Positions 9,798 through 41,742 of a DNA stretch of 64,000 nucleotides are shown here, in pieces. How positions within the stretch are numbered: position 1 is the first letter of the stretch; each line of letters begins with the position of its first letter. The notes below the pieces were generated by a model. The model saw nothing but the letters and a program-made list of their open reading frames with translations, made no database searches and was not told where the DNA came from. The translations under genes were made by a program, and so were the position numbers. This DNA comes from an uncultured virus (IMG/VR IMGVR_UViG_3300010362_000013) (taxonomy: Duplodnaviria; Heunggongvirae; Uroviricota; Caudoviricetes), in the IMG/VR virus record IMGVR_UViG_3300010362_000013. One strand, 5' to 3'.

Positions 9798-10712
9798 ATG
9801 TCCCGCAACCTCGCAGCGCTGCTTACAAGGCCCATTGGTATTGCGACCGGCGATCCGAATGAAGGCATCTATGGCACAACCCATTCCGGCCCGCGTGGTA
9901 TTGAGTCGGTGATCGAGTACAACGGCATCTATCTCAATGTCCGTGAATGGGTTGATACGTATCTTGTCACGACTATTGGCGGAATTGATGATGCCGATGT
10001 GCGCGACAATCGCGAGGTCAATCCAGGCTACCACGGCGAGACAGCTTTCACTGGCTACTATGGCGGGCGCACAATCACGCTCACCGGCAAGGTCGTCACG
10101 AAGACGATCTTCAAGCTGCGCGATATGCAGCAGGGCCTCAGACAGGCGTTCGCGCCGCTTGATGTCGAGCGCCCGCTGATCTTTCACACGCCTAGTCCGA
10201 TATTGGACTTGCAGGTGTATTGCAAGAAGAATCAGGCGATTCAGATGGCCGATGAGCAGCGGACCGCGAATCACTTCGAGCGAGCTTTTCTGATTACGTT
10301 GCGGGCCAGCAATCCACGCTTCGTCAGTGTCATCCGTGAGTACAACTCGCAGACGTTTGCGGCAGCTACATTCGATGCGATTGCGTTTTCAAGTACCAAT
10401 AATGGTAACTATGCTGCGCAACCTGAGATCCAATTGCTCGGACCGATGACAAATCCAAAGATCATCAACGAACTCAACGGTGACACGATTTACATCCCGA
10501 CAACGATTCCAGCGGGCGAGCGCTGGATTATTGAAACGGCTTCGCGGCGCTTCTATCGCCAAAGCGATGTGGCGAATCGTTTTCAGTATCTCGATCCGAT
10601 GTCGGATTGGATGGAGCTTGATCCTGGTAAGAACAATCTTCACTTCATCGCCACCGGTATGACGGCGGGTACTTCCCAGCTTGTCGTCTACCATCGGCAC
10701 ACCGTGATCTAG
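9798..10712 (+). CDS. Distal tail protein (Dit)-like minor tail protein
   Basis: Position after the TMP; YGGRTITLTG, LRASNPRF, NNGNYAAQPEI..GPMTNP, W.EL.PG.N motifs. Confidence 0.75.
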   Translation: MSRNLAALLTRPIGIATGDPNEGIYGTTHSGPRGIESVIEYNGIYLNVREWVDTYLVTTIGGIDDADVRDNREVNPGYHGETAFTGYYGGRTITLTGKVVTKTIFKLRDMQQGLRQAFAPLDVERPLIFHTPSPILDLQVYCKKNQAIQMADEQRTANHFERAFLITLRASNPRFVSVIREYNSQTFAAATFDAIAFSSTNNGNYAAQPEIQLLGPMTNPKIINELNGDTIYIPTTIPAGERWIIETASRRFYRQSDVANRFQYLDPMSDWMELDPGKNNLHFIATGMTAGTSQLVVYHRHTVI

Positions 10713-14943: not shown

Positions 14944-14958
14944 TGGTATGATCCCAAT
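14944..14958 (+). promoter_or_regulatory. Extended -10 promoter TGG-TATGAT-CCC, leaderless start of helicase
   Basis: TATGAT at 14947-52, 6 nt before ATG 14959, with no SD; the same motif recurs elsewhere. Confidence 0.6.
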
Positions 14959-16515
14959 ATGCGAGTTGTACCCGTCGTCGTTGACAACGCCTTGCGCCTT
15001 GATGGAAATGTCATCGATCATGACTTGGCCGAGGCGATCTTCGACGAACTGACTATCCACAACACCGCCAAGGACATCGCTCGCAAGATGGAGCGGTGGG
15101 GATGGCAGGAAATGCCGGATGAGTTTCAGCTTGGCGCGCTCGAAGGCGATATCGTCGTCATGCCCCGAGGCTATGCGTACCAGTTGAAAACACTATTGCG
15201 GGAAGAAGGCTTGAAGGTTCAGTGGATTGATCGGCGCAAGTGGCATCGCCATGCGCCAAAGCTCGGCAACGGTGCCTTCCCCTACCGCCAGCATCAGCGC
15301 GAGGCCGTGCGACAGATCATTCGCAACCAGCAGGGCATGTACGAAGCTCCAACTGGTTCTGGCAAGACTGTTACTTGTATTGGATTTCTGACGGAGAAGT
15401 CACCATTGAAGACACTAATCCTCGTTGAGAAGCTCGATCTGCTGCATCAGTGGCGCGCGGAGTTGTCACGTTGGCTCGATATTCCCGAGGATGAAATCGG
15501 CCAGATCGGTGACGGCAAGTGGTTCGAGGGATCACGTATCACTGTTGCCACAGTGCAAACGCTTTGGAAGGCGCTCAAGGAAGATATGTTCATGCGCCAG
15601 TATCCGTATTTCTTCCATCAATGGGATTGCGTCATCATTGATGAGTGTCATCATGTGTCGGCGCAGACGATTCGCGATCTCGTTTCCCGCTTCTGGGCCA
15701 AGTACCGCTTCGGCGTCTCGGCCACGCCTGATCGCAAGGATGACAAGTTCGAGTTCGCTCTCAATGTGCTTGGCGAGGTGTTTTGGGAAGATGACGAGAA
15801 TGCTCTTCGCGCAGGAGGAGTGTTGGTGCGGCCAGTTGTACAGGTGGTCAGGACCAATTTCGATCACGTCTACTGGGGCGATCACCACAGTGATGACGAT
15901 GATGAATGTGACGTTCCAGGGTGCCGTCTTTCAGGCAAGCGGCCCCACTTTCACCAGAACAATTACGGCCAAGTCAAGAAGGCACTGGTAGAGAATCAAG
16001 CTCGCAATATACTTGTCATAGAAACGTTGATGCGCGAGGTGCATAAGGGCAAGCATCACCACCTGATCGTTTCCGATGAGGTGCGCCACTTGGAAGCTTT
16101 GCAGGAGACGCTTGACAAGCAGTACGGCCATATCTCGGCCAAATACAAGCATTCCAAGGGCCTGCCTCCGGTGTGGGTTCTCACTGGGCGTGTACGCGGC
16201 GAGAAGCGCGCTCAGATGAAGCAGGAGATCATTGACGCGCCCGCTGCGATCGTCTTTGCCACTGTGGCAAAGGAGGGCATTGACATTCCGGCGATTGATC
16301 GCATCTATCTGCCGTTCCCGACGCGCTCAGCGCCAAAGGTACAGCAGTGGATTGGACGCGGTACGCGCACGCTCGAAGGCAAATCGAGCACGCTGATTTA
16401 CGATTTCTTCGATGTCAACTGTGGCGTCTTGAAGCAGCAATTCAGAAATCGCAGGTTTCAGTGTTACGACAAGCTCGATATCGAGGTGCGCCTTGAACAG
16501 CACTATCGCAACTGA
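14959..16515 (+). CDS. Superfamily 2 (DExH, UvsW/ResIII-like) helicase
   Basis: Q-motif YRQHQ, Walker A APTGSGKT, DECHH, SATPDR, EGIDIP, QWIGRGTR. Confidence 0.92.
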   Translation: MRVVPVVVDNALRLDGNVIDHDLAEAIFDELTIHNTAKDIARKMERWGWQEMPDEFQLGALEGDIVVMPRGYAYQLKTLLREEGLKVQWIDRRKWHRHAPKLGNGAFPYRQHQREAVRQIIRNQQGMYEAPTGSGKTVTCIGFLTEKSPLKTLILVEKLDLLHQWRAELSRWLDIPEDEIGQIGDGKWFEGSRITVATVQTLWKALKEDMFMRQYPYFFHQWDCVIIDECHHVSAQTIRDLVSRFWAKYRFGVSATPDRKDDKFEFALNVLGEVFWEDDENALRAGGVLVRPVVQVVRTNFDHVYWGDHHSDDDDECDVPGCRLSGKRPHFHQNNYGQVKKALVENQARNILVIETLMREVHKGKHHHLIVSDEVRHLEALQETLDKQYGHISAKYKHSKGLPPVWVLTGRVRGEKRAQMKQEIIDAPAAIVFATVAKEGIDIPAIDRIYLPFPTRSAPKVQQWIGRGTRTLEGKSSTLIYDFFDVNCGVLKQQFRNRRFQCYDKLDIEVRLEQHYRN

Positions 16516-19308: not shown

Positions 19309-20580
19309 ATGGATGTTGAATCAATATTGCTCAGCAAGGCTCTGCAATCAGGGGATCTTGCCGACGTAGTAGCTCGCGGCATCGAACCTGACCACTTTGC
19401 CGACGAGGAGCTTGCTGAAATCTACGAGTGGTGCGGCGAGTTCATGGCGAAGCACAAGACGCCACCGTCGATTGAAGTCGTGCGCGGCGAGTTCGATTTC
19501 AAACCAACACTGTCGAAAGACCCGCTGTCGTACTTGATCGATCGTTTTGTGTTGCTAGTCAAGAAGCGCACGGCAGTTGAACTGGTGCGTGGCTATCATG
19601 ATGCGCTCGATGATCCAGACGAGATCGGAGAGATTGAGCTACGGGCGCTAGAAATGGCATCACAGTTGGCAGAAATCGTGCCGACGCCAAAAGCACAGCG
19701 GCTTTCCGAGGGTACTGCTCGTAAGCAGGAGTATGCGCGCCGCAAGAAGAAGAGACTCAAGCCTGGAATAATGTTGAATATCCCGTCGTTCGATCACATT
19801 ACGATGGGATTGCAGCCTCATGAACTGCTGATTTGGGGCGGCGGTCCTGGTGCGGGTAAGACGACTGGCTTGCAGCACACCGCACTCAGTGCTTACGTGC
19901 AGGGTAAGACGGTGCTGTTCGTCAGTCTTGAGGTTGAGGCCGAGCAGATCCTTCGTAAGTTTGACACAATGTTGTCACACGTTCGTTACCGTGCGCTCAA
20001 GGGTCTTGAGTTGAATGATGATGAAGCGCGCGAATGGCATCGTATCCTCAAGCAGTGCGAGCGGAATCGGATGGAGAAGGACATCATCATTGTCGATGAT
20101 ATTCGTAACTGCACCGTCGAGAAAGTTGCTGCTGAGCAGATCCGTTACAAGCCGCAACTCGTCTGTGTTGACTACCTTGAGGAAATGCGCACACCGCGCA
20201 ACTTGCAAGGCTGGGAGGGCGTGGCGCATAATGGGCGCGGCCTCAAACAGCAGGCGCGTGTCAGTCGCATTCCGCACGCTACTGCAACACAGTTGAATCG
20301 TGAAGGTGAGACGGCCTACCAGAGCGCGCAGAAGATTGCGGATATGCTCATCATCTTGATTCCACCCGAAGAGGATGACGATCAGACGCGCATGCACTTG
20401 CTGATGCGCAAGTATCGCGATGGTCCTTCGCGTAAGCCCGCGACGATGCGTTGGGATCTGGACACAATGTTGATCGAAGAGCTTACCGACGAGCCGTTCG
20501 AGACGCGCAATCTTGGCAAAAAGACGATTGCTGAGCGCCGTAAGTTGTGGGGCGAGCGACACAGGAACGGTCATGAGTGA
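19309..20580 (+). CDS. dnaB: Replicative DnaB-like helicase
   Basis: GLQPHELLIWGGGPGAGKT, VLFVSLE, VDYL, TQLNR, ADMLI, KYRDG. Confidence 0.9.
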   Translation: MDVESILLSKALQSGDLADVVARGIEPDHFADEELAEIYEWCGEFMAKHKTPPSIEVVRGEFDFKPTLSKDPLSYLIDRFVLLVKKRTAVELVRGYHDALDDPDEIGEIELRALEMASQLAEIVPTPKAQRLSEGTARKQEYARRKKKRLKPGIMLNIPSFDHITMGLQPHELLIWGGGPGAGKTTGLQHTALSAYVQGKTVLFVSLEVEAEQILRKFDTMLSHVRYRALKGLELNDDEAREWHRILKQCERNRMEKDIIIVDDIRNCTVEKVAAEQIRYKPQLVCVDYLEEMRTPRNLQGWEGVAHNGRGLKQQARVSRIPHATATQLNREGETAYQSAQKIADMLIILIPPEEDDDQTRMHLLMRKYRDGPSRKPATMRWDLDTMLIEELTDEPFETRNLGKKTIAERRKLWGERHRNGHE

Positions 20581-21148
20581 TCTACTCAGTGCAATACGTC
20601 GTAAGCGGCTCACAGCCGCTCTGGAATCATTGAATGACATCTATGGTTACGACGAGGTGATGGATCGACAGCGCTATTTGAGTCCGACCGTGCGTGTTGC
20701 TTCGGCCCCTGCGCGCTCGACTGATCCTGAAACCAGTCACCTTGCCGCCAAAGATGAGCCTGACATTGGACGTTTCTCTGTCCGCTCACGCAAGGCGCGT
20801 TTACTGCGCTGGTTTTCCAGCAATGATGGCACGGATCAGCAGGCAGCGCTGGCGATCTTGCTTCCCAATCCATCGTACAGTCTTCTCGATGGGACACGGC
20901 GGCGCGTAGGAGAATTGCGGGATTGCGGCTTCCTATATGACACTGGGCGGCGCGATCACAACCTCGGCTCTAGTGATGACGCGATCGTGTCAGCAATCAC
21001 GCGGGAAGGGCGTAGAGCGCTGCGGCGGCTGGAAACTACTGGTTGGTCGCGGACAAAGCATAGCAGGAACGGACACGAATCTTGGCAAGTATCAGTTCAG
21101 GAGTCAGTACGCGGTGGTGCGCAGCGACCTACATGGAGCCTGCGTTGA
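20573..21148 (+). CDS. Putative winged-helix DNA-binding protein
   Basis: ARSTDPETSHLAA...RRRVGELRDCG...DTG.R pattern; ATG 20573 overlaps the dnaB end. Confidence 0.55.
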   Translation: MSDLLSAIRRKRLTAALESLNDIYGYDEVMDRQRYLSPTVRVASAPARSTDPETSHLAAKDEPDIGRFSVRSRKARLLRWFSSNDGTDQQAALAILLPNPSYSLLDGTRRRVGELRDCGFLYDTGRRDHNLGSSDDAIVSAITREGRRALRRLETTGWSRTKHSRNGHESWQVSVQESVRGGAQRPTWSLR

Positions 21149-21205
21149 ATGGCCGTGACGGCAGCCCACGATCCTGTTCTGATGGACAGATGAGAACTGT
21201 CCCGG

Positions 21206-21269
21206 TAGCGCGCGAGAGGAGCGGAGTGGGAGGTCGGCCATCATGACCAAGCTCCGCTCCTCGCCGCGC
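21206..21269 (+). ncRNA. Long GC hairpin directly upstream of the tRNA-like element
   Basis: GAGGAGCGGAG/CTCCGCTCCTC 11-bp perfect stem, extended by GCGCG/CGCGC, with an inner GGTC/GACC pair; region lacks a convincing ORF. Confidence 0.45.
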
Positions 21270-21274
21270 ACAAT

Positions 21275-21345
21275 GGCGGCTAGCTCAGTGGCGAGCAATC
21301 GACCGTTGCTGGTCGAGAGGGCGCGTTCGATCCGCGTAGCCGCCT
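21275..21345 (+). tRNA. Non-canonical tRNA-like element (anticodon not assignable)
   Basis: Acceptor GGCGGCT/AGCCGCC, D arm GCTC-AGTGGC-GAGC, arm TCGACC-GTTGCT-GGTCGA, T arm GCGCG-TTCGATC-CGCGT. It has a 1-nt acceptor-D linker, no canonical 7-nt anticodon loop and no CCA. Confidence 0.65.
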
Positions 21346-21364
21346 TGCTGGTATCATCCCGAAG

Positions 21365-21823
21365 ATGACCGATACTTGGTTCGTCAAGCGCGAGAACGGC
21401 AAGACTATTCACAACTGGCTCTCGAACTTCTGGATCGAGCCGGACGGCACGAACGTCGAGAGCGAGTTTCAGGCGGCGAAGCACCTCGCCCATCCGTGGC
21501 GGCGTGCAACGATTCTGCATGCCAGGCCAGGGCGCGCGAAGAAACTTGGGCGCAAATGGCCGCTGAATGATCGCGAGCTTGCCATCTGGAATGACAACAA
21601 GATTGCGGTGATGCGCACGCTGGTGCAGCAGAAGACGCTCGATCACCCGGAGATTGCGATGGCGCTCATCAGCACTGGCGATGCGAACCTGTGCGAGACG
21701 AACTGGTGGCACGACAACTTCTGGGGCAACTGCACTTGTTTGCGTTGCTTCCGTAGTGGTGACAACAATCTTGGCAAGATCTGGATGGCGGTTCGCAATG
21801 ATTTGGCCGGGAAGGGGCGTTGA
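21365..21823 (+). CDS. NADAR family (YbiA/DUF1768) hydrolase
   Basis: WLSNF...VESEFQAAK...AKKLGR...W...MR.LV..K...L.STGD..L.E.N.WHDNFWG...G.N.LGKI.M.VR. Confidence 0.9.
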   Translation: MTDTWFVKRENGKTIHNWLSNFWIEPDGTNVESEFQAAKHLAHPWRRATILHARPGRAKKLGRKWPLNDRELAIWNDNKIAVMRTLVQQKTLDHPEIAMALISTGDANLCETNWWHDNFWGNCTCLRCFRSGDNNLGKIWMAVRNDLAGKGR

Positions 21824-22116
21824 TGAGCAAGGCGGGAACCGATGGCATCGTGGCTCTGCTACGCGAACGGGACATCGACCACATGGCGTTGCTGTTCATC
21901 TTCGCCGGGATGCAAGACTCGCTGCCCGACACCATCCAACGACTCGATCGCGTGCTCGACTACCAGCGCGACTACCGCAAGAGGCTGCACGGTCATCGGG
22001 ATCGCCGGACCGTCGAAATCGTGGACCGGGCGGTGGACATCGGACGCTCGCTGCGCGCCGGATTGCAGCAGGTGCATGAAGTAGATCTGGCCGGGGAGCG
22101 AGCAAGTGATGAATGA
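21820..22116 (+). CDS. Hypothetical protein
   Basis: Coupled ORF, 98 aa. Confidence 0.5.
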   Translation: MMSKAGTDGIVALLRERDIDHMALLFIFAGMQDSLPDTIQRLDRVLDYQRDYRKRLHGHRDRRTVEIVDRAVDIGRSLRAGLQQVHEVDLAGERASDE

Positions 22117-22249
22117 GCAGATCGACACCTACCTGATTGTGGAAGCGATCCTCGCGGCCTGCCCGCAGTTGCATCCCGCCCAAGCGCGAGCGGCGGCGCT
22201 GAACGTGCAGAAGGTCATCGAAGCGGCCAGAAAGCAGGCGGGGCGATGA
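22109..22249 (+). CDS. Small hypothetical protein (46 aa, below ORF-track cutoff)
   Basis: MNEQIDTYLIVEAILAACPQLHPAQARAAALNVQKVIEAARKQAGR; SD GGGGAG; ATGA overlap with the next gene. Confidence 0.5.
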   Translation: MNEQIDTYLIVEAILAACPQLHPAQARAAALNVQKVIEAARKQAGR

Positions 22250-22437
22250 GCTACTACCACCCGCGCTGTCGGCGCTGCGGCAACGTCGGCGACCGCACAT
22301 TCGCCGAGGACGCGAACGGTGAAATGACCGATGTTCTCGCGCCCGGCCTGCGCGTCGAAGACCTGACCTGCTGCGATGTTCGTGACTGCGAGCTTATGCC
22401 CGAGGACGACATCGCTATGAGCGACAAGCAGGCATGA
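22246..22437 (+). CDS. Cys-rich microprotein
   Basis: CRRCG...CCDVRDC; coupled on both sides. Confidence 0.5.
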   Translation: MSYYHPRCRRCGNVGDRTFAEDANGEMTDVLAPGLRVEDLTCCDVRDCELMPEDDIAMSDKQA

Positions 22438-23627
22438 TGGTTCGCTCGCTGAGTGACCGAATAGCTCGGTTAGAGCGTAACCACGTAACCAGTCGCAAGA
22501 AGTCGCGCAACAAGCTTGTGTGGCTGCGTGATGTAAATGTTATTGACTTGCTTGAGAACTTTGATATCGCCAATATTGATAAGGCGACTGCTGATGAGGT
22601 GATCTTCTCCTGCCCGTTCCCTGGTCACACGCACGGCGATGAGCGTCCGAGTGCGTACATGAATGATGGCAGCAAGAACCCGGAACTGACAACACTATGG
22701 AAGTGTCATGGTTGTGGGCGCTCCGGCAATGCGGTTGGTTTCGTAAGCGAGTACATGAATGTCTCGCGTCAGCAAGCGCGTTTGTGGCTCAAGCAACACT
22801 ATGCACCTGGCTATCGTGCGCCGCGCTATGGTTCCATAGCTCGCGAGTTCGAGGAGCGCTACAAGCTTTCTCAACAACGCGCGTCTTTTGATCCGGTGCC
22901 AGCGTTGCCTTCGGAGACGTTGATGCGTTTTGATGTGGATTGGGGCTATTACGCGGAGGAGCATGGCGATCAGCCAGATGTTGCCTATATGCTTGACAGG
23001 GGTTTCACGCCTGCTGTGCTCGATGAATGGGGCATTGGTTACGACTTTGATTCGCGGCGTCTGACGATTCCTGTCTGCGATGCTGACAACAATCTTGTTG
23101 GCTTCAAGGCACGCGCGTGGGAATCAGATGTGCGCCCGAAGTACTTGATCCTCGGTGATCGTCGCCGGTTACGTGGTTACGGTTTCCTCCCCTATGACAA
23201 GAGTCGGATCGTCTTTGGCCTCAACGTCTGTGGCGAGCAGCAGCGACTCGTTCTAGTCGAGGGCGAGATCGATGTGATGAGCTTGTGGGTCATGGACATC
23301 CCGGCAGTCTGCACAGGTGGGGCGAGCATGAGCGACGAACAGGCGCTCCTTATTCGCCAGCATTGCGATGAACTTGTCATCTTTCTTGACTCAAACACAG
23401 CAGGACACAACGCGACTTGGGGCTACGTAAAGGCTGACGGCGAAGAGACGCCGGGGATCGTGGAGCGGTTGGAATCGCATATCGATATCCGCATCGTCTG
23501 CCATCACCGCTATGATCCGAACGATTACCTCGTACGCGGCGAGCGCGAACGGGTGAGACACCTGATCGACACCGCCAAAGCTTCGTTCTGGTATGATCCC
23601 AGCAAGCAGCGACGAAACAACGCATGA
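22434..23627 (+). CDS. dnaG: DNA primase (CHC2 zinc finger + TOPRIM)
   Basis: CPFPGH..G.DERPS...WKCHGC, YM..RG, VGFKAR...PKY, LVEGEIDVMSL, FLDSN.AG, DPND. Confidence 0.9.
   Translation: MMVRSLSDRIARLERNHVTSRKKSRNKLVWLRDVNVIDLLENFDIANIDKATADEVIFSCPFPGHTHGDERPSAYMNDGSKNPELTTLWKCHGCGRSGNAVGFVSEYMNVSRQQARLWLKQHYAPGYRAPRYGSIAREFEERYKLSQQRASFDPVPALPSETLMRFDVDWGYYAEEHGDQPDVAYMLDRGFTPAVLDEWGIGYDFDSRRLTIPVCDADNNLVGFKARAWESDVRPKYLILGDRRRLRGYGFLPYDKSRIVFGLNVCGEQQRLVLVEGEIDVMSLWVMDIPAVCTGGASMSDEQALLIRQHCDELVIFLDSNTAGHNATWGYVKADGEETPGIVERLESHIDIRIVCHHRYDPNDYLVRGERERVRHLIDTAKASFWYDPSKQRRNNA
23589..23600 (+). promoter_or_regulatory. Internal promoter motif TGG-TATGAT-CCC for the SSB gene
   Basis: Same 12-mer as at 14944 and 51328 (minus), inside the primase 3' end; followed by an A/C-rich leader. 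Confidence 0.55.
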
Positions 23628-25512: not shown

Positions 25513-25657
25513 CTATAAGATTGTCATTTGCTATCACCGCAACATTGAGCGCATCGGTGAGGTTGAGCGCTGCAAGGATTGCGGTGATGTGTGGATGATC
25601 GCCGCGAATCTTGTCAAGACTCCTAAACTGGTTGCGGTAAAGGCTGATAATGACTGA
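25505..25657 (+). CDS. Zinc-finger microprotein (50 aa)
   Basis: MPDYKIVICYHRNI...RCKDCGDVW; overlaps both neighbours. Confidence 0.5.
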   Translation: MPDYKIVICYHRNIERIGEVERCKDCGDVWMIAANLVKTPKLVAVKADND

Positions 25658-28600
25658 GTTTGCTGGACATTTCCATTGTCATGATGAGTATTCTCCGCTT
25701 GACGGTACGGGCACGCGCAACCAACTGTCGCATCAGGCCGTGCGCAAGGGACAGACACACCTCGGATTTACTAACCACGGACGGCTCGGTGGGGCGCTTG
25801 AGCACGTTTACGCTTGCCGCCATCCAGAAAAGCTTGACAATCCTCTTGACCCTGGAAGTAAGCGGGGAGCCGACGAGCGGCTGAATCCGATCCTCGGCAT
25901 TGAAGCGTTCTGGCGTCCCGATCGTTTCATGGAGTGCGACCATACTTGGGCCAACCACCTGTGTTTACACGCTGCTTCGCTGCGTGGCTGGCGGACGTTG
26001 ATGCGGCTGTCCAGCAAATCGTGGGTCAAGCGTGAGCGCGGTGGTGGTTTCTACGGCAAAGCTGTCATTGATCTTGATATGCTTGAGGACGATCATGAGG
26101 ATCTGATTGTTTCGACAGCATGCTTGGCATCGCCATTGTCGCAGTTGATCCTCAAGGGTGATGAAGATGGCGCGATCAATTGGATCTACGATATGAAGGA
26201 TCTCGTCGGTGATCGACTGTGGCTGGAAATCATGCCGCACGATCTCGATGAACAGCGTACTGTCAATATTGCGCTGGCAAATCTAGGTGAGATAACGAGC
26301 ACGCCGCTGATGGTAACAGGCGATGTTCATACTCCTTACAAAAAGTGGGCACGCACGCATGAGGTTGTGCGGATGGCGAGCTACAAGCAGACGTTCTCCA
26401 AGCGCGAGACGAAGAAAGATGCCGGTGAGGATGTCTACACAGAGCGCATCAATACTGTTCATTTGAGTTCAGGCAAGGAACTGCTCGGCTGGTTCCGTGA
26501 GTATCATCCTGATTTGCCCGAGTACGTCGTCAAGGAAGCGCTTGCCAACACTAAGGAATTCGCTCATCAGATCCACTGGTATGCGATCGGTAAGACATCG
26601 AAGCCGCCAAAGGTGGAGATCGATGCCGCCGCGCAGGTGGGCGAGTGGATGGATGACGGCTGGCATCAGCTACTTATCAATTATCCTGACAGTCATTGGA
26701 AGCAGTGGCCCCAGGAGGACTACATCGAGCGTATGCAATACGAGTTCGGCGTGCTTGAAGAGAAGGGCGTGCTCGACTACTTCTACATTACTGGTGACTT
26801 CGTGCGGTGGGCAAAGAGCAATCTACCGTTGCCAGAACGGATGCCGGACGGAGCGCTGTACTTCCCGCCCAATGAGAGCAAGAAGCCGATCAGAGTGGGA
26901 TTGGGGAGGGGTAGCGCGGCAGGCTGCCTGATCTCTTACCTGATCGGCATCACCTCGATCGATCCGATCCCGCACAAGCTGCTGTTTGAGCGCTTCATGA
27001 ACCCGGATCGCGAGGGCTATCCTGACATTGATATTGATTTCGCGTCGGATGGCCGGGATCTCGTCAAGGAATATTTGCGTGTCAAGTATGGTAAGGATCA
27101 CGTTTCTGACATCATTGCCTATCAGACGTGGGCACCGCGTGTTACGATCAAGGAAGTTGGCGTCGTTTATGACATCGAGTTCGGGCGACTGAATCGCATC
27201 ACTGAGAGTATTGGTGACACAGAACGCGGCCTTGAGAAGATCGCTGCCGACAATGAGCTTGTCCACGAACTCAAGCGCGATTTCCCTGATGCGTGGCAGG
27301 ATATGACGCGGCTTGAGGGTCAGATTCTCCGTGATACGCGCCATGCTGGCGGCGTTGTCATCACTCCTCGTCCTACGAATGACTACATCCCGACGCAGAC
27401 CGGCTCCGACGAGGAGACGATTGTCACGGCATGGTCGGACCGCATCGAGTTCCCGATCATGAGCAACTACGGATTTCTCAAGTGGGATATCCTTGGCGTC
27501 ACTAGTCTTGATAAGCAGCAAATGGCTGTCGATCTGATCGAGCAGCACTACGGCGAGCGCATCGAACCGAATGAACTGTCCTGCCTCCGTGACCCCTATG
27601 ATGTCAATGGTAAAGTCATGGATGCCTTCATCAAGGGCATCACGCTCGGCGTGTTCCAGTTCTCAGGGCGCGGGATCACGCAGTTTCTTCGCCACGTTCG
27701 TCCTGATAACACTGTTGAAATAGCCGCTTGCAACGCGCTCTATCGGCCAGGAGCGATCAAATACGCCTTTGAGTACGGCGACCGTAAGAAGGATCGCTCC
27801 AAGATCACGTACCCGCATGAAGCACTTGAACCAGTATTGTCAGAAACCCTTGGCCTGATTGCCTTTCAGGAGCAGGTCATGGAGATCTGCAAGGTGCTCG
27901 GCAAGTTCACGGGCGCTCAGGCCGACTTTATGCGCAAGGCGATCAGCAAGCTTTACCGCCTCGGTAAAGAAGAAGCGCAGCGAGAAATGGCTCCGTTCTA
28001 TGACCAGTTCATACAGGGCTGCCGCGACCAAGGCGTCAAGCAACGTGACGGCGATCAGGTGTGGGCCTACATTCTTGAGTGGGGCGGTTATGGCTTCAAT
28101 CGTAGTCACTCCGATTCCTACGGTTTGCAGGCATATCAAGATATGGATCTCAAGGTCAACTGGCCGCTTGCCTTCTATGCATCACTGCTAACGACAGAAC
28201 ATAAAGCGAAGAAGAAGGAGCGCCAGGACTTCTACAAGAATGTGCTGCGCGAGGCCCGGTATTTCGACGTGGAACCGGCTGGTCCTGATGTCAACCGTAG
28301 CGCAACGAACTGGGGCATTGACGATGGACGACTTCGTTATGGACTCATATCGATATCTGGCATGGGTCGTGGTCTGGTCGAACAAGTCGTCAACAATCGA
28401 CCCTACGAAGGTTATACCGATTTCGTCGCGGCGGTCGGCACGGGATTTGGCGCTGACAAACTTGAGGCTCTTGCTCGCGCAGGGGCTTTTGACGCTACCG
28501 ATGACAGAAGATATCTGCTCTCCCAGACCCCGCAGTGGGCCGACAATGTAGCGAAGATCAAGGTCAAGATGACGTGCGGCCACCTCAAATCGCGTACGAT

Positions 28601-29252
28601 CAAAGCCAAGAATGCTGACGATGATCTCGAAGCGTTGGTTGAGGATGCGATCAACGATCTTACTTGTCCGCATCACCCTGACGCAGAGCCGGAAGTCGTC
28701 AAGCGACTTGATGATACATACACAGTGGCGCGCTGGTTCAAGGAACATCCCAACGGCGATGATCCGAAGGTCGTCAGAAAGCCGACCGCGCTTCAGTTGA
28801 ATGATATGGAGTTGGATGCGCTCAATGTGTCGTTGACGCAGAGCAAGTTCCTCCAACAGTATAAGCCGTTTCTTGACAGGCGTATTTACACGGAAAACGA
28901 GATCCAAAATCTGCCCAAGCATCCAAAGCGCAATGGCCGTCAGCACGGTAATTGGTGCGCTTGTGAGCGCTGCAAGCTGTCCCGTTGCGTGATTGGTGGC
29001 GAGATTACCAACACCAAGGTAATCTTGACCAAGGCGAAGGACAAGATGGCTTTCATTGATGTGGCGTATGAGGCTAATCAGTACTCCTGCACCATGTTTC
29101 CGAAGATCTACTCCGAGTACGAAGAACTGTTGACAACATCAGCACTATTTCTGATCGCTGGCTACAAGGACGACCGCAACCAGATCGTCGTCACTGATAT
29201 GGCTGACGTGTTTGAGGTCGCTGCCGATCAGGGGTGGAGAGATAATGAGTGA
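25650..29252 (+). CDS. dnaE: DNA polymerase III alpha subunit with intact PHP domain
   Basis: HFHCHDEYSPLDG, GRGSAAG, LLFERF.NPDR..PDIDIDF, RHAGG, KWDILG, GYGFNRSH, C-terminal OB fold. Confidence 0.96.
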   Translation: MTEFAGHFHCHDEYSPLDGTGTRNQLSHQAVRKGQTHLGFTNHGRLGGALEHVYACRHPEKLDNPLDPGSKRGADERLNPILGIEAFWRPDRFMECDHTWANHLCLHAASLRGWRTLMRLSSKSWVKRERGGGFYGKAVIDLDMLEDDHEDLIVSTACLASPLSQLILKGDEDGAINWIYDMKDLVGDRLWLEIMPHDLDEQRTVNIALANLGEITSTPLMVTGDVHTPYKKWARTHEVVRMASYKQTFSKRETKKDAGEDVYTERINTVHLSSGKELLGWFREYHPDLPEYVVKEALANTKEFAHQIHWYAIGKTSKPPKVEIDAAAQVGEWMDDGWHQLLINYPDSHWKQWPQEDYIERMQYEFGVLEEKGVLDYFYITGDFVRWAKSNLPLPERMPDGALYFPPNESKKPIRVGLGRGSAAGCLISYLIGITSIDPIPHKLLFERFMNPDREGYPDIDIDFASDGRDLVKEYLRVKYGKDHVSDIIAYQTWAPRVTIKEVGVVYDIEFGRLNRITESIGDTERGLEKIAADNELVHELKRDFPDAWQDMTRLEGQILRDTRHAGGVVITPRPTNDYIPTQTGSDEETIVTAWSDRIEFPIMSNYGFLKWDILGVTSLDKQQMAVDLIEQHYGERIEPNELSCLRDPYDVNGKVMDAFIKGITLGVFQFSGRGITQFLRHVRPDNTVEIAACNALYRPGAIKYAFEYGDRKKDRSKITYPHEALEPVLSETLGLIAFQEQVMEICKVLGKFTGAQADFMRKAISKLYRLGKEEAQREMAPFYDQFIQGCRDQGVKQRDGDQVWAYILEWGGYGFNRSHSDSYGLQAYQDMDLKVNWPLAFYASLLTTEHKAKKKERQDFYKNVLREARYFDVEPAGPDVNRSATNWGIDDGRLRYGLISISGMGRGLVEQVVNNRPYEGYTDFVAAVGTGFGADKLEALARAGAFDATDDRRYLLSQTPQWADNVAKIKVKMTCGHLKSRTIKAKNADDDLEALVEDAINDLTCPHHPDAEPEVVKRLDDTYTVARWFKEHPNGDDPKVVRKPTALQLNDMELDALNVSLTQSKFLQQYKPFLDRRIYTENEIQNLPKHPKRNGRQHGNWCACERCKLSRCVIGGEITNTKVILTKAKDKMAFIDVAYEANQYSCTMFPKIYSEYEELLTTSALFLIAGYKDDRNQIVVTDMADVFEVAADQGWRDNE

Positions 29253-31017: not shown

Positions 31018-31198
31018 CAAGATTCCGTTCCCGGCCACGCCCGAGGAAATGTACGAGCTACTGTGTCTTGAGGAATGGATCAAACGCGAAGGCGGACTCA
31101 CGGATCAAGGCGTGAAGGGCTATATACTCGTCAAGAGTGGTTACGTGCTCATCGATGTGTCCCGAGTGGAGGTGTATGATGGGGCTATCGCGGGGTGA
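31001..31198 (+). CDS. Hypothetical protein
   Basis: 65 aa; its 3' end carries the SD and first codons of the next gene. Confidence 0.5.
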   Translation: MSVHVDKIPFPATPEEMYELLCLEEWIKREGGLTDQGVKGYILVKSGYVLIDVSRVEVYDGAIAG

Positions 31199-31727
31199 GG
31201 AGCGAGCGGCGTGGTACTTGGCTGGCATCTTCGACGGCGAGGGCTGCGTGAGCTATACCCAGGGTAAACGTGGGTTGATTCAGAAGGTGGTTGAAATCAG
31301 TAATACTGATAGGTCGATCATCGACACTGTTGTTGCTGCTCTGGATGAACTTGAGATCTTGTACAACTTGCGTGGCCCGATCCATCTGCGCGAAGAACGT
31401 TGGACACCGTATTACTCAATACGGTTGTCAAACTATGATGCAATCGCCAAGTTCGCTCGCCTTGTGCCGTTTCAGAGCGATAGCAAGCGCGAGAAAATCG
31501 AGCATATTGTCAACTCTCGTTACGTTATGAGTCGAGAGGATTGGCCTGTTGACGAGATCGAGCGCTTGTATTGGGAAGAGAATATGAGTTGTCGAGATAT
31601 AGCATCGGTGCTTGGCATAGGCGACAGCAATGGACACAAGCGCGTGATCTACTATATGGAACAAGTCGGCATTCCTCGTCGTTCAAAGAGTGAAGCCGCC
31701 AAGGGGAGGTGGTCCTCGTCGGATTGA
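31176..31727 (+). mobile_element. LAGLIDADG homing endonuclease with C-terminal HTH, inserted at the 5' end of the exonuclease gene
   Basis: SD GGAGGTG, MMGLSRGE-ERAAWYLAGIFDGEGCV...EISNTD...; EIERLYWEENMS.RDIA...GIPRRSKSEA. Confidence 0.88.
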
Positions 31728-36609: not shown

Positions 36610-37365
36610 ATGGCTTCCAAGAAGCTCGTCAAGAAAGACGATGATGGCGAGGATTCGGCGCTAAGGGAGCGCCAGATTGCCGCCCTTGCGCGTCTGCATG
36701 AGCTTGGCGGTGCGCCTCACAAAGATGGCGAGCCGTACAACAGCGACCCACAGATCCGGGCGCTACAGATGGTCTACGAGGGTCGCTTTGGCGGTCCAGG
36801 GCTAGGCCAAGGGCGTCCGTCTTCGCGTGGTGAGCCGCGTGCCGCAGAGGTTATTGCCGAGGAGATTCGTACCCGTTTCACAAAACGCATGACACGCGCT
36901 ATCGAGCGAGCGTTGCGGCAAGACGCAGGTGTCAGGGCGAATCTCGATGCAGTCAAGTTGGCTCTCGAAATCGAGAACCGTGAAGCACAGCTACAACTCC
37001 GCGAGAGTCAAGTAGACGACGCATCAGCAACAAAGGAGGAGCTACTTGTCACGCTCTTTGAACTCCTCACCCAGCCCCAAACAGCAGCAGTCCTCGAAAC
37101 GACCGCGATCGATATCACAGAAGCTGAAGTCATCACAGATGACGAATGGGAAGAAGCGGAAGGATCTGCATCCACTGCTGGAACGGATGGGGGTAGAGGA
37201 GATTCCCCCGGCGCTGCGCCGAATGGGAGTCACAGCCGAGGTTCTGGATCGAATGGAGCCGGACGACCTAAGAGGAATCGTCCAGCGAGTCAAAATCCTT
37301 TCACGGAGACTGCGATACGAAGGGCCGCAGAGCGACGACGAACTTCACGCTTGGGTAAAGACTAA
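36610..37365 (+). CDS. Putative terminase small subunit
   Basis: Directly upstream of TerL; FGGPGLGQGRP motif and helices; TAGAAT 8 nt before the ATG. Confidence 0.55.
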   Translation: MASKKLVKKDDDGEDSALRERQIAALARLHELGGAPHKDGEPYNSDPQIRALQMVYEGRFGGPGLGQGRPSSRGEPRAAEVIAEEIRTRFTKRMTRAIERALRQDAGVRANLDAVKLALEIENREAQLQLRESQVDDASATKEELLVTLFELLTQPQTAAVLETTAIDITEAEVITDDEWEEAEGSASTAGTDGGRGDSPGAAPNGSHSRGSGSNGAGRPKRNRPASQNPFTETAIRRAAERRRTSRLGKD

Positions 37366-39115
37366 CATCGGTGTTGACATCCCGCGAGAGGCGGTCTGCG
37401 AGGATCACGTTCCGCCTTTCAAGTTTCTTGCCGATCTGTATTTCGAGCGCACTTCGGCGGCACTGGCGCTCGCAAATCGTGGCGGCGCGAAGACATTCAT
37501 CGTTGCGATCCTGCATTTCCTCAATAGTACTTACAAGTCCGGCTGCGAGTCACTGTCATTCGGCGCGACGGAGGCTCAGGGCAATCGCTGCTATGGCAAC
37601 ATCGAAGATTGGTGCTATGAGCGCGACCCTGAAACTGGCAGGAGACTTGACATAGTTTTGCCGTTCATCCGTGAGCGGCCCAAGAAGTCGCAGACGATTT
37701 GGAAGACCGGTTCTGTTGTGGAGGTCGTCGCTGGTAGTGAGAATGCTGTCTCCGGTCCGCACCCGGCGAAGGCGCATGCCGATGAGATCGATATGATGGA
37801 GGAAGCTGTCTGGAATCAGTCCCGAGGTATGGCTGTCACTAATCGTGCCAAGGGTCCGTTGCCCGGATGGATGAGCCGTTTCAATGGCATGATCCCGCCC
37901 CAGGATATTGCCACCAGTACGCGTAACTCCACCAAAGGCCGTATGCAAGAGCTTCTCGAAGAGATCGCCGAGGATCTCAAAGCTGGTAACATTCCTCAGT
38001 TCGACCTGTATCCGTGGTGCATTTGGGAAACAGCGCAGGAAGTGCCGAATTGTCGTTGTATTGACAAGCGTACACGCAGGCAGCGACTCAAGGAATTGGG
38101 CGAAGATCCCACCTCGCTATGTGAGTGCCATCGTGTTGTCAAGGGGCGGTTGCCCGGAGGTCAGCCGCGCACGCTTGAGAAAGTTTGCCAGGGCAAGGCA
38201 TTCCGTTCGCGTGGTTGGAAGCCGTATATTGACATTGTACGCACGTTCAAGCGCAACACTCCTGGTACATGGACGTTGCAGCATGAGTGTCGTCATGGTC
38301 AGGACGAGAACAACTACATCCAAGATTGGTCGCTCAGTGCCTACGGCGTGCGGCACTATGAGCCTCATCCGCTCTACGGGCCGATCTACATGGGTATTGA
38401 CTGGGGCACGACAAACCCGGCAGCAGTGTTGTGGTTCCAATATCTAACAGCAGAAGTCCCCGGCCTCGGCTTCGAGTTCGAGGCGATTTGGCTGTCGCCG
38501 GGAATCTACGTGCTATTCAAGGAAATCTACGTTAGCGGTATTGGCACCGATGCTTTGGCGAAGCGCGTTGTCGGTATCGAGAATGGCTATCGCAACGAGT
38601 TCGGTCAGGCATGGCGCGTCAAGGGCCGGTTCGCAGACCCACAGGGTGCTGGCGATCGCATCATCTTCAAGAATCATGGGTTGCCTTCAACATGGCCGAT
38701 CAAGACACGGCAAAAAATCAGGTTTATTGACACGGTACAGAACCTCGTCGTGGATGACAGGTTTGCCGTTGATGTCGATCAGTGTCCGATGTTCTGCGAA
38801 GAGGTTGAAGGCTGGCAGAAAGACCCGCGTACTGGCAAGGAGCTTGACAAATACAATCACGCGATGTCGGCGTGGCGCTACGGTATTTCCAATGCCGAGG
38901 TCATTGAGGGCCGACGCCGTGCGATCATGGATAAGGCAAGGAAACGTCAAGAGGAGAACAGCAACGGCGGACGTGCTCTGCGTACTGTCACTCCGCGCAA
39001 GCGTTCTCTCATGAGTACTGACGTAAATGAAGTCGTCTACGGCAACGTGGCCGCGCGTGGCGGTACCGAACTGTCACTTGATCCCAGGTTTGCCTTGAAT
39101 GTGGGGAAGGAATAA
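37139..39115 (+). CDS. terL: Terminase large subunit
   Basis: ANRGGAKT Walker A, HADEID Walker B, TST, nuclease GIDWG.TNP, FADP, NHAMSAWRY. Confidence 0.88.
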   Translation: MTNGKKRKDLHPLLERMGVEEIPPALRRMGVTAEVLDRMEPDDLRGIVQRVKILSRRLRYEGPQSDDELHAWVKTNIGVDIPREAVCEDHVPPFKFLADLYFERTSAALALANRGGAKTFIVAILHFLNSTYKSGCESLSFGATEAQGNRCYGNIEDWCYERDPETGRRLDIVLPFIRERPKKSQTIWKTGSVVEVVAGSENAVSGPHPAKAHADEIDMMEEAVWNQSRGMAVTNRAKGPLPGWMSRFNGMIPPQDIATSTRNSTKGRMQELLEEIAEDLKAGNIPQFDLYPWCIWETAQEVPNCRCIDKRTRRQRLKELGEDPTSLCECHRVVKGRLPGGQPRTLEKVCQGKAFRSRGWKPYIDIVRTFKRNTPGTWTLQHECRHGQDENNYIQDWSLSAYGVRHYEPHPLYGPIYMGIDWGTTNPAAVLWFQYLTAEVPGLGFEFEAIWLSPGIYVLFKEIYVSGIGTDALAKRVVGIENGYRNEFGQAWRVKGRFADPQGAGDRIIFKNHGLPSTWPIKTRQKIRFIDTVQNLVVDDRFAVDVDQCPMFCEEVEGWQKDPRTGKELDKYNHAMSAWRYGISNAEVIEGRRRAIMDKARKRQEENSNGGRALRTVTPRKRSLMSTDVNEVVYGNVAARGGTELSLDPRFALNVGKE

Positions 39116-39117
39116 TA

Positions 39118-41742
39118 ATGGCAAGCGCGCCCAAGAACGCCAAGATCGAGAGCGCGACTCCCGATCCAAAGGAAATTGACAAGCTAGAGAAGTCTGTTCT
39201 CAGTACCGAACAGGCTCCAACGACAGCACAGATGACGCCGACCACGGGTGCGTGGCAGGCGATGTCTACACAGCTTGGCCCGCCGTTCGACAACGAGCGC
39301 GTCACGCTGTCACAAATGCGGCAGATGCGCAAGGATGCGATGATCGCGTTCGGTCTGCACTACATCAAGGTTCCGCTCGTTCGCGCCGACTGGCACATCG
39401 AAGCGCGTGACAAGAATGGTCCCAATGCGCAAGTTGCCGCTTTTATTGACAGTGCGCTGAGGCCGATCTACGGGCGCTATGTCTTCCAGCGTACGCTAGC
39501 TCTGGACTTTGGCTTTCAGGCGATGAGCAAGCGTTTCATCTACAAGAACCCTGGCGGTGTCTACAAAGACCCGACCGAAGCCGATCCGACGAAGCAGATC
39601 AAGCCGGTGTGGGACGAGGGATCTGTCGAGCCGATCATCTGGAAGACGACAACACCGCTGCGCCCTGAGCTAGTCACGCCGGTCTTCGATGACAACACTG
39701 GCGAGTTCAATGGGATGGAGTACGACGCGCCACAGGTGTCAACAGCCAAGAGCAACAAGAAGAAGAAGGCGGGCAAGCTCGAAATCGACGTGTACCACTC
39801 GCTGTGGGGCACCAACGCCAAGGATGACGAGCACGGTTCGATCTATGGCTTCCCTCGCACCGGTCACGCCCGTGATTACTGGTGGGCCTACAAATTCCTC
39901 TTCCAGCTTTCCAACCGTGGCTACGAACGGATCGCGATTCCGCCTGTGCTGGCTTACCATCCCGAGGGTAGCAGCGTCATTGACGAGGATACGGGCGAGA
40001 CGCGGGCCAATTGGGAGATCGCGCTGGAAATGGCCGATCGGCTTCGCAGCAATGCTGTCGCTGCCGTTCCGTCAACAATGGCGGAAACGGGTTTGGGAGA
40101 GACTTCCAATACGCAGCGCGGCTGGGACTTCAAGTTCCTTGAGACGCCCTCCGATTCGCTGCGGATTTTCGATGGGCGTTTCAATTACCTCAACGTGATG
40201 AAGCTGCGCTCGGTGTGGGTGCCAGAGCAGGCGTTCATTGAGGGCGAGGGTGGCACTTCCTCGCGTAACGTTGCGGCGCAAATGGCCGAGATCTTTATCG
40301 AGTCGCAAGCATTGTTGATGGATGAGGTTGACGACGAGATCAATAGGTTCATGATCCCGCAGATCCTCGTCGTCAACTTCCCCGAATTTGTCAACAATGG
40401 CGGACAGGCGTACAAGGTCAGCCACGGTTTCCGCAAGGAGGACATCGAGTTCTACAAGCAGGTGTTGCAATTGATCGGGCAAAGTAACGCATCACTGCTG
40501 ACAGATAACGTGGACATCATGGAACTTCTGCGGCGCATGAATACGCCGCTCAAGGATGCGCGCGAACTTGAGAACGAGCGCCAGCAGGTTGTCGCGCAGC
40601 AGGCACTTGGCGGTCCCCCGTTGGTCGGCCCCAACGCGGGTAGGAATGTCGGCGTAGTGCCAAATCCCGGTGGCAACAATGGCGGATCGATTCCTGGCGT
40701 CACGTCTACGACCGGTGCGGCGGCGGGCTTCTCTGACACGCGCTTCAGTACGATTTATATTCAGCCGAACGACTACATCGAACTGTCCGATGTCGAGGAC
40801 TTTCTGACAGGATTGCCGCTGACGAAGCACTATATGGACAAGACGCTGCGAGCGCTGACCGTGCAACTTCGCCGTCAGTGGGAGGGTCACTTTCGCCGCC
40901 TATACCCTGAGTTTGCAAGCTATGTCGCTGGCGTTGACAAGCTCGAACTAGCTGACGAGGAGAGGAAGATCCGCATCAGCAAGGCGACGGCGCAAAAGGC
41001 AGCCAATCGCTTGATGAAGGGTTTCGTTGTCGCCAGCGAGGTCATGCAAGAACTTGCCGACAAGAGCCGTGCGATTATCGCCAAGATGGTTGACAGAGGC
41101 GCGAAGCTCGATCAGCAGATATCGCGTAAGGAAGGCGAGCTTGACGAGGATCGCTACAACCAGTTCCTCGATGAGCAGGTCGGACGACTCATCAAGTTCA
41201 CCTCGCGCACGGCGCGCGATGAGTTGCGCGACTTCCTTGTCAATGAGATCCGTGAGGGTAACGGTCCCAAGGAAATTGCCGACAGCATCACTGCGCACTT
41301 CCAGGGCTTCCCGTCCACGAAGGCTGACCGCATCGCTCGCTCTGAAACCAGGGACGCCGTGAATGCCGCAACATTGTTGTCGAGTGAGGCGGCGGGGATC
41401 AAGTACGTCAGGGCGACTGACGGTGAGGAGTTCGATCAGGAATGCCGTGAGCGCAATGGGGCGCTGTTCACGGTCCGTGAGGCGTGGGTGGAGTTGCGCA
41501 AGGAGCACCCGAACGGTACGCTCGCCTTTGACCCAATTCCGAGGGCGAACTTCTCGATCGAATATGTCAGGACGATGCCTGACGATGCGCCGGATGACAG
41601 CACTGCGTACTTCGATGACGAATCGTCCACGGCTTTCATCATCTTCAACAGCGAGGGCACGCCGGAATATCTGTCGGCTCTCGGTGAGTGGCTGATGACG
41701 CACTCGAACGGAGCCGTCCATGAGGCCGCGACGGACTCATAA
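39118..41742 (+). CDS. Portal protein fused to MuF-like minor head domain
   Basis: Follows TerL; portal-like N-terminal ~500 aa; C-terminal ADRIARSETRDAVN...GIKY...D..C..RNG...EHPNG MuF motif. Confidence 0.8.
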   Translation: MASAPKNAKIESATPDPKEIDKLEKSVLSTEQAPTTAQMTPTTGAWQAMSTQLGPPFDNERVTLSQMRQMRKDAMIAFGLHYIKVPLVRADWHIEARDKNGPNAQVAAFIDSALRPIYGRYVFQRTLALDFGFQAMSKRFIYKNPGGVYKDPTEADPTKQIKPVWDEGSVEPIIWKTTTPLRPELVTPVFDDNTGEFNGMEYDAPQVSTAKSNKKKKAGKLEIDVYHSLWGTNAKDDEHGSIYGFPRTGHARDYWWAYKFLFQLSNRGYERIAIPPVLAYHPEGSSVIDEDTGETRANWEIALEMADRLRSNAVAAVPSTMAETGLGETSNTQRGWDFKFLETPSDSLRIFDGRFNYLNVMKLRSVWVPEQAFIEGEGGTSSRNVAAQMAEIFIESQALLMDEVDDEINRFMIPQILVVNFPEFVNNGGQAYKVSHGFRKEDIEFYKQVLQLIGQSNASLLTDNVDIMELLRRMNTPLKDARELENERQQVVAQQALGGPPLVGPNAGRNVGVVPNPGGNNGGSIPGVTSTTGAAAGFSDTRFSTIYIQPNDYIELSDVEDFLTGLPLTKHYMDKTLRALTVQLRRQWEGHFRRLYPEFASYVAGVDKLELADEERKIRISKATAQKAANRLMKGFVVASEVMQELADKSRAIIAKMVDRGAKLDQQISRKEGELDEDRYNQFLDEQVGRLIKFTSRTARDELRDFLVNEIREGNGPKEIADSITAHFQGFPSTKADRIARSETRDAVNAATLLSSEAAGIKYVRATDGEEFDQECRERNGALFTVREAWVELRKEHPNGTLAFDPIPRANFSIEYVRTMPDDAPDDSTAYFDDESSTAFIIFNSEGTPEYLSALGEWLMTHSNGAVHEAATDS

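Follow-up and report, generated by a model that had tools for sequence, protein, structure and literature searches.

A small family of non-canonical tRNA-like RNAs between the DnaB and NADAR genes of related soil phages

A lone tRNA-shaped sequence, with every arm paired and an anticodon-like loop of the wrong size, lies just upstream of a NADAR-domain gene in phage DNA, and this raises the question of whether it is a tRNA in decay, a chance fold, or an RNA that is kept. The window analyzed here, meaning the whole 64-kb stretch of uncultured-virus DNA, is a novel siphovirus-like phage (gene content in Table 1) with a G+C content of about 56% and nearly all genes on the plus strand until about 48 kb. 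Its DNA had no match among 50,697 GenBank phage records, and all protein matches of its PolIII alpha fell below 60% identity. A peptide-pattern search returned no relatives of the 211-aa protein encoded upstream of the element, and the window ORFs that were scanned include no integrase. Genes of homing-endonuclease type (LAGLIDADG and HNH) are found at 31137-31727 and 55461-55823 (-).

A sequence-only reading of this locus had described an intact cloverleaf with a 7-bp acceptor, GG in the D arm and the T loop TTCGATC, together with a single linker base before the D stem, an anticodon arm readable as 6 bp with 6 nt or as 5 bp with 8 nt, and no CCA; each of these features is confirmed from the sequence (Table 1). 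The 8-nt alternative arises if the C-G closing pair of the 6-bp stem opens, and the discriminator T is followed by TGC, with no CCA encoded in the window copy. ARAGORN made one call in the whole 64 kb, on exactly the plus-strand interval listed for the element, as tRNA-??? with a 4-base anticodon (ttgc), in agreement with the expectation of a lone element and an undetermined call. The same reading had denied the loop any canonical U33 geometry, and here the claim stands in part: the loop is mis-sized, but in the 6-nt reading a U occupies the second loop position, as U33 does.

Table 1. Coordinates of the tRNA-like element, its parts and its surroundings in the 64-kb window.
Feature	Position	Strand	Evidence
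tRNA-like element, 70-nt body plus discriminator T (21345)	21275-21345	+	ARAGORN; MFE cloverleaf; model R1, 91.7 bits
Acceptor GGCGGCT / AGCCGCC, 7 bp	21275-21281 / 21338-21344	+	
Single linker A ahead of D stem	21282	+	
D arm GCTC-AGTGGC-GAGC, 4-bp stem, GG in loop	21283-21296	+	
2-nt linker after D arm	21297-21298	+	
Anticodon-like arm, 6-bp stem TCGACC/GGTCGA	arm 21299-21316; stem 21299-21304 / 21311-21316	+	
Anticodon-like 6-nt loop GTTGCT	21305-21310	+	
Variable region GAGG, 4 nt	21317-21320	+	
T arm GCGCG-TTCGATC-CGCGT	through 21337; T loop 21326-21332	+	
Conserved promoter-like 12-mer TGCTGGTATCAT, abutting element	21346-21357	+	TATCAT at 21352-21357; motif recurrence
Small hairpin GGACAG-ATGAGAA-CTGTCC	21184-21202	+	by eye on alignment
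Large G+C-rich hairpin, ends 5 nt before element	21208-21269	+	fold; homologous hairpins in L030, L031
Tail protein with lysozyme domain, 2,609 aa	451-8280		
Dit-like tail component	9798-10712		
Helicase	14959-16515		
DnaB	19309-20580		
NADAR-domain gene, 152 aa, downstream neighbor of element	21365-21823	+	Pfam PF08719, E = 4.6e-16; phrog_1017
Primase	22434-23627		
PolIII alpha	25650-29252		
Terminase	37046-39115		
Portal	39118-41742		

The minimum-free-energy fold of 72 nt is exactly the cloverleaf, at -34.6 kcal/mol, with a modest fold-energy z-score of -1.95 (9 of 200 shuffles fold equally well or better). On 150 dinucleotide-shuffled windows ARAGORN gave 2 calls, or about 0.013 per window; a chance origin of its call is unlikely, though the window copy alone leaves room for chance. 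The Rfam tRNA model (RF00005) left this copy unmatched both at the gathering score (29 bits) and at E<=10.

Relatives of the element were sought through relatives of the NADAR protein in IMG/VR and in metagenome contigs, and by a DNA pattern scan. Three further elements were found, on phage contigs L030 (1591-1661), L031 (729-799) and L047 (1172-1242), whose NADAR proteins are 59-77% identical to that of the window; all four elements occupy the same place, between DnaB and NADAR. ARAGORN called the L030 and L031 copies, both as tRNA-??? with a 2-base anticodon, and missed that of L047, which scores 88.5 bits with the family model R1. The four share one plan: a 7-bp acceptor, the linker A, a 4-bp D stem and a D loop with GG, then 1-2 nt, a 6-bp stem, a 6-nt loop, RAGG, a 5-bp T stem and TTCGATC, with no CCA. 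The D loop has 6 nt in three of the members and 6-7 nt overall, that of L031 being the longer, and pairwise identity of the elements is only 41-50 of 71 positions. The relatives thus hold no canonical tRNA at this place; L030, L031 and L047 carry the same non-canonical plan, which rules out the window copy as a recent mutant of a canonical tRNA.

Comparison of the four copies shows how the shape has been kept. Standard pairs fill 96.6% of the 88 pair cells (22 pairs, four members), double-sided changes occur in 13 of the 22 pairs, and covariation is present in all four stems. None of 500 shuffles reaches the observed pairing and covariation, and when the 3' partners are slid pairing drops to 38-52%; the three unpaired cells are an alignment artefact from the longer D loop of L031. 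Within the anticodon stem four of the six pairs change on both sides and all 24 cells are paired. The two C-G pairs that close this stem are invariant in all members, and an invariant pair carries no information for or against pairing. RNAalifold predicts the identical structure without being given it.

The loops behave differently from the stems. TTCGATC, RAGG, the D-loop GG and CC-GUU.C.-GG are invariant in all four copies, although with four members invariant loop positions could partly stem from shared ancestry. The anticodon-like loop has two forms, GUUGCU (window and L047) and GUUACG (L030 and L031), with the consensus GUURCK, and these do not track the similarity of the bodies, that of the window being closest to that of L030. 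The discriminator is U in the window and A in the three relatives. A 41-aa ORF overlaps the window element (21243-21368); its frame is not conserved, having stops inside the L031 and L047 elements, which indicates that the element is not protein-coding.

Stems that covary and loops that stay fixed show a cloverleaf under purifying selection as RNA, and the element is very probably a real, selected structured RNA. Its odd features (the linker, short D loop, 6-bp stem, 6-nt loop and 4-nt variable region) are ancestral to the family and do not reflect a recent lesion. Since architecture, covariation and fixed loops are held in common, the elements form a small conserved family of non-canonical tRNA-like RNAs, neither a recent mutant nor a chance fold, with four members so far, all in related soil phages. 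Because the same odd shape is kept in three related phages, the window element is probably a working RNA and not a decayed tRNA. The sequence-only reading had likewise argued against simple decay, and the non-canonical architecture shared by three relatives, with compensatory changes in every stem and the loops kept, upholds that argument.

The family is narrowly distributed in what was searched. R1 gives its members 84-94 bits, and the next best match in the window reaches 13.7 bits (filters off). No further member was found with R1 over 305 kb of NADAR loci, none of six DnaB-relative loci from a DnaB-based scan has the element, and G001, the 108-kb, 96%-complete contig holding L047, yielded nothing besides the L047 element. 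Ordinary tRNAs are absent from the window and from G001. A strict loop/T-loop pattern matched 17 loci in IMG/VR (one real, L047, and 16 chance), and a looser D-arm/loop/T-loop pattern matched one locus there, L047 again; over one genome each of 185,579 species the looser pattern gave 10 matches, all chance, with the best R1 score at 19 bits (L065). Exact 22-nt and 24-nt pieces of the window element are absent from IMG/VR.

The NADAR tree mixes carriers with non-carriers: element-free L001 is the sister of L031, a carrier (support 93/95), and L032, also element-free, groups with the window and L030, with the carrier L047 outside that group. L095/L096 and L097 also lack the element, and in L095 and L097 NADAR directly follows DnaB. 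The element may be old and have been lost at least twice, or may have been moved by recombination; the tree fits both. It is dispensable, given that L001 and L032, nested among carriers, are without it, as are L095/L096 and L097.

This distribution also bears on the link with NADAR, which the sequence-only reading had proposed as an RNA-plus-enzyme counter-defense unit. Phage NADAR-type enzymes have been reported as counter-defense against DarTG1 (available text of PMC11825919 and PMC11543638). An obligate unit is not supported: at least four related phages have NADAR and no element (L001, L032, L095 and L097), in L030 the element and NADAR are separated by an additional gene and another copy of the promoter, and in L047 a promoter would have no room after the element. 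No element was found away from NADAR, a biased count with three of the four members having been found through NADAR. The adjacency is synteny of one phage group, the link is positional only, and a functional unit is not supported.

The element was also said to be fused to the NADAR promoter. Between the 12-mer TGCTGGTATCAT and the NADAR ATG there are 7 nt (promoter-like region 21346-21364), and a conserved copy of the motif stands ahead of NADAR in L001 and L031, and two copies in L030. In the window, L030 and L031 the end of the element is followed by 6-7 nt, TATCAT or TATGAT, 7-8 nt, and an ATG without a Shine-Dalgarno sequence. Fusion therefore describes three of the four members, but the promoter does not depend on the element, the same motif being present in element-free L001. 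The stated spacing of 4 nt to the -10 box is correct for the reading TGGTAT, which begins 4 nt past 21345; TATCAT begins 7 nt past. In L030 the promoter copy next to the element drives an additional 61-aa gene, and NADAR is driven by the second copy. The L047 element takes up the space from the DnaB stop (1167) to the following ATG (1248) except for 4 and 5 nt.

The same motif also precedes the helicase gene at 14959. Exact matches to GGTATSATCC occur in the window at 14945, 21350, 23590 (+) and 51329 (-); with <=1 mismatch there are 12, compared to 5.1 expected, and none of 100 shuffles reaches 12. Judged by this recurrence, GGTATSATCC is probably a leaderless-type phage promoter. Scans of 20400-22600 for the sigma-70 consensus and for terminators gave 0 sites each, and the promoter and terminator readings are for this reason drawn only from motif recurrence and folds.

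Several further observations concern the motif and the NADAR loci. The GGTAT(C/G)ATCC sites span 14945-14961, 21350-21367, 23590-23599 (+) and 51329-51338 (-), and two of them sit 7-8 nt before an ATG lacking a Shine-Dalgarno sequence; at 51329 (-) and in L047 the apparent start codon is the ATG inside the motif itself. At 1662-1880 of L030 the motif is duplicated around the 61-aa gene, which is Cys-rich, and this looks like cassette exchange through shared promoter sequence. The NADAR of L047 (1248-2027, in the 108-kb relative) carries a DUF4031 domain at its N terminus as a fusion (Pfam E = 4.7e-15 and 5.7e-19). Directly upstream of NADAR in L032, at the place of the element (~2600-2985), is a Cys/His-rich ORF that is HNH-like by eye. 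On a more distant NADAR-bearing viral contig, ARAGORN reports a permuted tmRNA with the tag ANDERFSLAA (L023, 1533-1851).

On its other side the element is preceded by two hairpins (Table 1). The large hairpin is possibly a terminator or stabilizer of the upstream DnaB operon, with no U tract after it; it lies 5-6 nt from the element in the window and L030, and about 190 nt away in L031. The small hairpin recurs in L001, L030 and L031, where its stem differs yet remains paired (by eye) and its loop is AUGGGAA or AUAGGAA. No promoter of the element's own was recognized, and by eye the four copies share no conserved upstream motif; the simplest reading makes the element the final part of the helicase-DnaB transcription unit. 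Among sequencing runs the stretch was located in one alone, probably the DNA sample of origin, and in no RNA run.

The hairpins belong to a conserved non-coding stretch that runs from the DnaB-side gene to the element (window 21100-21270, L001 2830-2985, L030 1430-1590, L031 440-540), in the order small hairpin, CGGTAGCGCGCGAGAGG, large G+C hairpin. Stops fall in differing frames across the phages, and the stretch looks like RNA or regulatory DNA. In a comparison of window 20513-21158 with L001 2296-3004, the 211-aa ORF extends 84 nt beyond the position of the L001 stop, with CGA in the window where L001 has TGA. A second frame is conserved with a 69-aa ORF of L001 (…VVR.DL.G..VEWP), in which TGA ends the window frame and L001 has GAA; DNA similarity between the two continues beyond that TGA, and the region may hold overlapping small genes or non-coding conservation. 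L031 has a possible small, very hydrophobic ORF between hairpin and element (545-693, -), absent in the other members.

Among the features of a canonical tRNA, the 7/5 acceptor-T stack, the T loop TTCRA and the D-loop GG are present. A 7-nt loop on a 5-bp stem with U33 and purine 37 is found in none of the four members, and a single A replaces the canonical two nucleotides (8 and 9) between acceptor and D stems in all of them. In the 6-nt reading a U stands in the place of U33 and the next three bases are UGC or UAC, so that the two loop forms, UUAC-type and UUGC-type, appear to match the anticodons of tRNA-Val(UAC) and tRNA-Ala(UGC); an 8-nt loop with a 4-base anticodon is possible only when the invariant C-G closing pair opens. 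An 8/4 acceptor/T reading was rejected, as by eye it fits the window copy only. Among the relatives only L031 passes the gathering score of the Rfam tRNA model (39.9 bits), in an alignment that deletes position 9, inserts 1 nt after C32 and gives the anticodon UAC. Over 151 Actinomycetota genomes R1 matched ordinary tRNAs only, at <=45.2 bits, and the top two were tRNA-Val(UAC), a match favored by the UUAC carried by two of the four R1 training sequences. One of the 151 genomes is marked as unpublished, and no result here depends on it. Descent from a tRNA-Val(UAC)-like gene is plausible.

AlaRS requires G3:U70, and ValRS requires A35. The window copy combines an anticodon-like UGC with C3:G70 and G35. 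As this copy is without the identity elements for Ala and Val and the discriminator varies among members, the family has no consistent decoding identity, and the window copy probably cannot be charged. L030 and L031 keep UAC and discriminator A, compatible with valine identity, and these two elements could still be charged. An antisense role was considered and dropped: the complement of the loop and closing pairs has no other perfect target in the window or G001.

The account we favor, which we put forward tentatively as a whole, combines descent from a tRNA-Val(UAC)-like gene with transcription at an operon end, maturation, and a non-decoding role. The element would be transcribed at the end of the helicase/DnaB operon, then excised and matured by RNase P, 3' trimming and CCA addition; we infer excision by the tRNA-maturation enzymes because the acceptor/T-arm stack and the elbow of D-loop GG and T-loop TTCGA are intact. 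The matured L-shaped RNA would accumulate, incapable of normal decoding, and would serve as a tRNA mimic for a host factor recognizing both the tRNA body and the anticodon arm, being bound and not used. A candidate factor would be, e.g., an anticodon-arm nuclease or a modifying toxin. A mimic or decoy role is possible, judging from these structural prerequisites, and there is precedent in phage tRNAs that counter tRNA-targeting defenses (available text of PMC10264068). More doubtful is the specific form in which a dedicated compact-core decoy displays the U33-U34-R35-C36 face of host tRNA-Val(UAC)/tRNA-Ala(UGC) and jams or soaks up a defense nuclease directed at the anticodon arm or a modifying toxin; its two loop alleles may switch independently of the body, and it may never enter translation. 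Several points weigh against the mimic. A decoy for enzymes acting on the acceptor end could do without conservation of the anticodon-like loop, and one for an anticodon nuclease would more simply retain a 7-nt loop; the element is also dispensable, its L030 and L031 copies are valine-compatible, and it has no recognized promoter of its own.

An alternative is that the element may be the first natural bacterial-virus tRNA to decode with a 6- or 8-nt anticodon loop. Such a working tRNA could read GUA/GCA triplets, or quadruplets with a +1 frameshift, through an 8-nt loop with an extra G between 32 and 33; it could decode otherwise through the 6-nt loop, or provide a nuclease-resistant replacement for a host tRNA. 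The body is ribosome-competent in form, with the 7/5 acceptor-T stack, a G18G19/T-loop elbow and an L shape implied by covariation, and its architecture is that of the functional decoders mt-tRNA-Ser(UCN) and tRNAPyl, as far as described in the available text of PMC7609411. Yeast mitochondrial tRNAThr1, with a natural 8-nt loop, decodes triplets (PMC4267643, available text). The UAC and discriminator A kept in L030 and L031, and the Rfam score of L031, also favor decoding. We nevertheless consider a working tRNA unlikely: the triplet switches between UAC and UGC without identity elements changing to match, neither the window copy nor that of L047 has G3:U70 or A35, position 37 would be U in both where a purine is normal, and the C-G pair whose opening an 8-nt loop requires is invariant. 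Demand is not obvious either: in 22 window genes 20% of Ala codons are GCA and 7% of Val codons are GTA, and on these unremarkable figures a codon-supply role was dropped. An unsystematic look identified no gene requiring a +1 shift, and no natural six-nucleotide anticodon loop was described in the literature searched (subscription journals lay outside its coverage).

The element could instead be a processing or punctuation signal, at which RNase P and 3' processing cut a long early transcript. The DnaB-operon mRNA would then be left ending in the stable upstream hairpin, the downstream message would be freed or separated, and the excised RNA would have no job. The position always between two transcription or translation units fits this, as do the large hairpin 5-6 nt ahead of the element in the window and L030, the L047 copy that leaves no promoter room, and a weak resemblance of the L030 element to mascRNA, a tRNA-like 3'-end signal (20.6 bits vs. 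a gathering score of 42.5). Processing enzymes, however, read the acceptor/T arm and elbow and would not fix the anticodon-like loop and closing pairs; the downstream gene has its own promoter-like motif in three of four members, L001 uses that motif without an element, and the gap between hairpin and element widens to ~190 nt in L031. We give this explanation a low probability. A tRNA pseudogene, decaying or neutral, or a cloverleaf formed by chance in G+C-rich DNA between genes, would account for the Rfam miss on the window copy, for its modest z-score and for the loss from close relatives, but is close to refuted and highly improbable: four diverged copies keep all stems through 13 double changes with the same odd loop sizes, and shuffled windows rarely yield ARAGORN calls. 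That recent recombinants share one copy is opposed by the low pairwise identity. Finally, the selected feature could be DNA, either an att site for integration into a tRNA gene of the host or a structure of the replication origin or primosome. Classic att sites include tRNA-like sequences, and a plastic intergenic zone, between DnaB and primase, holds the element. There is, however, no tyrosine integrase, serine recombinase or resolvase in G001 or G002, nor any among the scanned window ORFs; none of the 10 matches in the 185,579-species scan is family-level by the model, and RNA is indicated by compensatory G-U pairs together with canonical T- and D-loop motifs confined to one strand. A role at the DNA level is hardly probable.

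Phage tRNAs have recently been recast as counter-defense tools against tRNA-cleaving immunity, and the published examples, among those compared and in the available text of their sources, are canonical tRNAs carrying point changes. The literature searched for tRNA-like decoys or mimics in phages (again with subscription journals outside coverage) did not describe the present family. This family has a tRNA body under selection and a loop size that should not decode. It would be a clean natural case either of a tRNA-shaped RNA whose selected role lies outside ordinary decoding or of a non-standard loop put to use in decoding. The family also shows a phage lineage in which the compact core of tRNAPyl and mt-tRNA-Ser(UCN) has arisen. 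The elements are small, cheap to synthesize and easily testable.

Among known systems, the defense-evading phage tRNAs are comparable in being phage-borne and tRNA-derived with an altered anticodon loop (PMC10264068, PMC11555353 and PMC11464382, available text), and the proposed mimic function belongs to the same conflict. Those tRNAs, as far as that text describes them, are canonical decoders with substitutions in a normal loop, whereas the element has changed its loop size and its 8/9 linker, and the window copy does not qualify as a chargeable canonical tRNA with loop or stem substitutions. Allo-tRNAs, from soil bacteria and phages, are likewise non-canonical cloverleaves from metagenomes and phages; with 8/4 or 9/3 acceptor/T branches, they have been proposed as suppressors or regulatory RNAs (available text of PMC5389517). 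Compared with these, the element family keeps the 7/5 branch and has no long variable arm. The tRNA-like domain of tmRNA, the Y RNA module of bacteria and phages (PMC4201824, available text) and mascRNA (RF01684) resemble the element in keeping the acceptor/T arm and elbow with the decoding part altered, and all are handled by tRNA enzymes. Those mimics either form part of a larger RNA or have no complete four-arm cloverleaf, in contrast to this free-standing 70-nt cloverleaf with four arms.

+1 frameshift suppressor tRNAs have 8-nt anticodon loops. The element resembles them, and yeast mt tRNAThr1 (PMC4267643, available text), in one extra anticodon-arm nucleotide, and ARAGORN and Rfam can each read its arm as an 8-nt loop. 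It differs in that the extra base would lie 5' of U33 and the invariant C-G pair can close a 6-bp stem. Mammalian mt-tRNA-Ser(UCN) and M. barkeri tRNAPyl, as the available text of PMC7609411 describes them, share with the element one acceptor-D nucleotide, a small D loop, a 6-bp anticodon stem and a short variable region, and in mt-tRNA-Ser(UCN) G18G19 and the T-loop motif are kept as well. According to the same text these two decode, with a 7-nt loop and a 3-nt variable region, whereas all four phage members have 6 nt and 4 nt; the family also differs in residing in phages and in having no consistent identity set. The compact core of mt-tRNA-Ser(UCN) and tRNAPyl is the closest architecture to that of the family, and its closest cellular matches are tRNA-Val(UAC).
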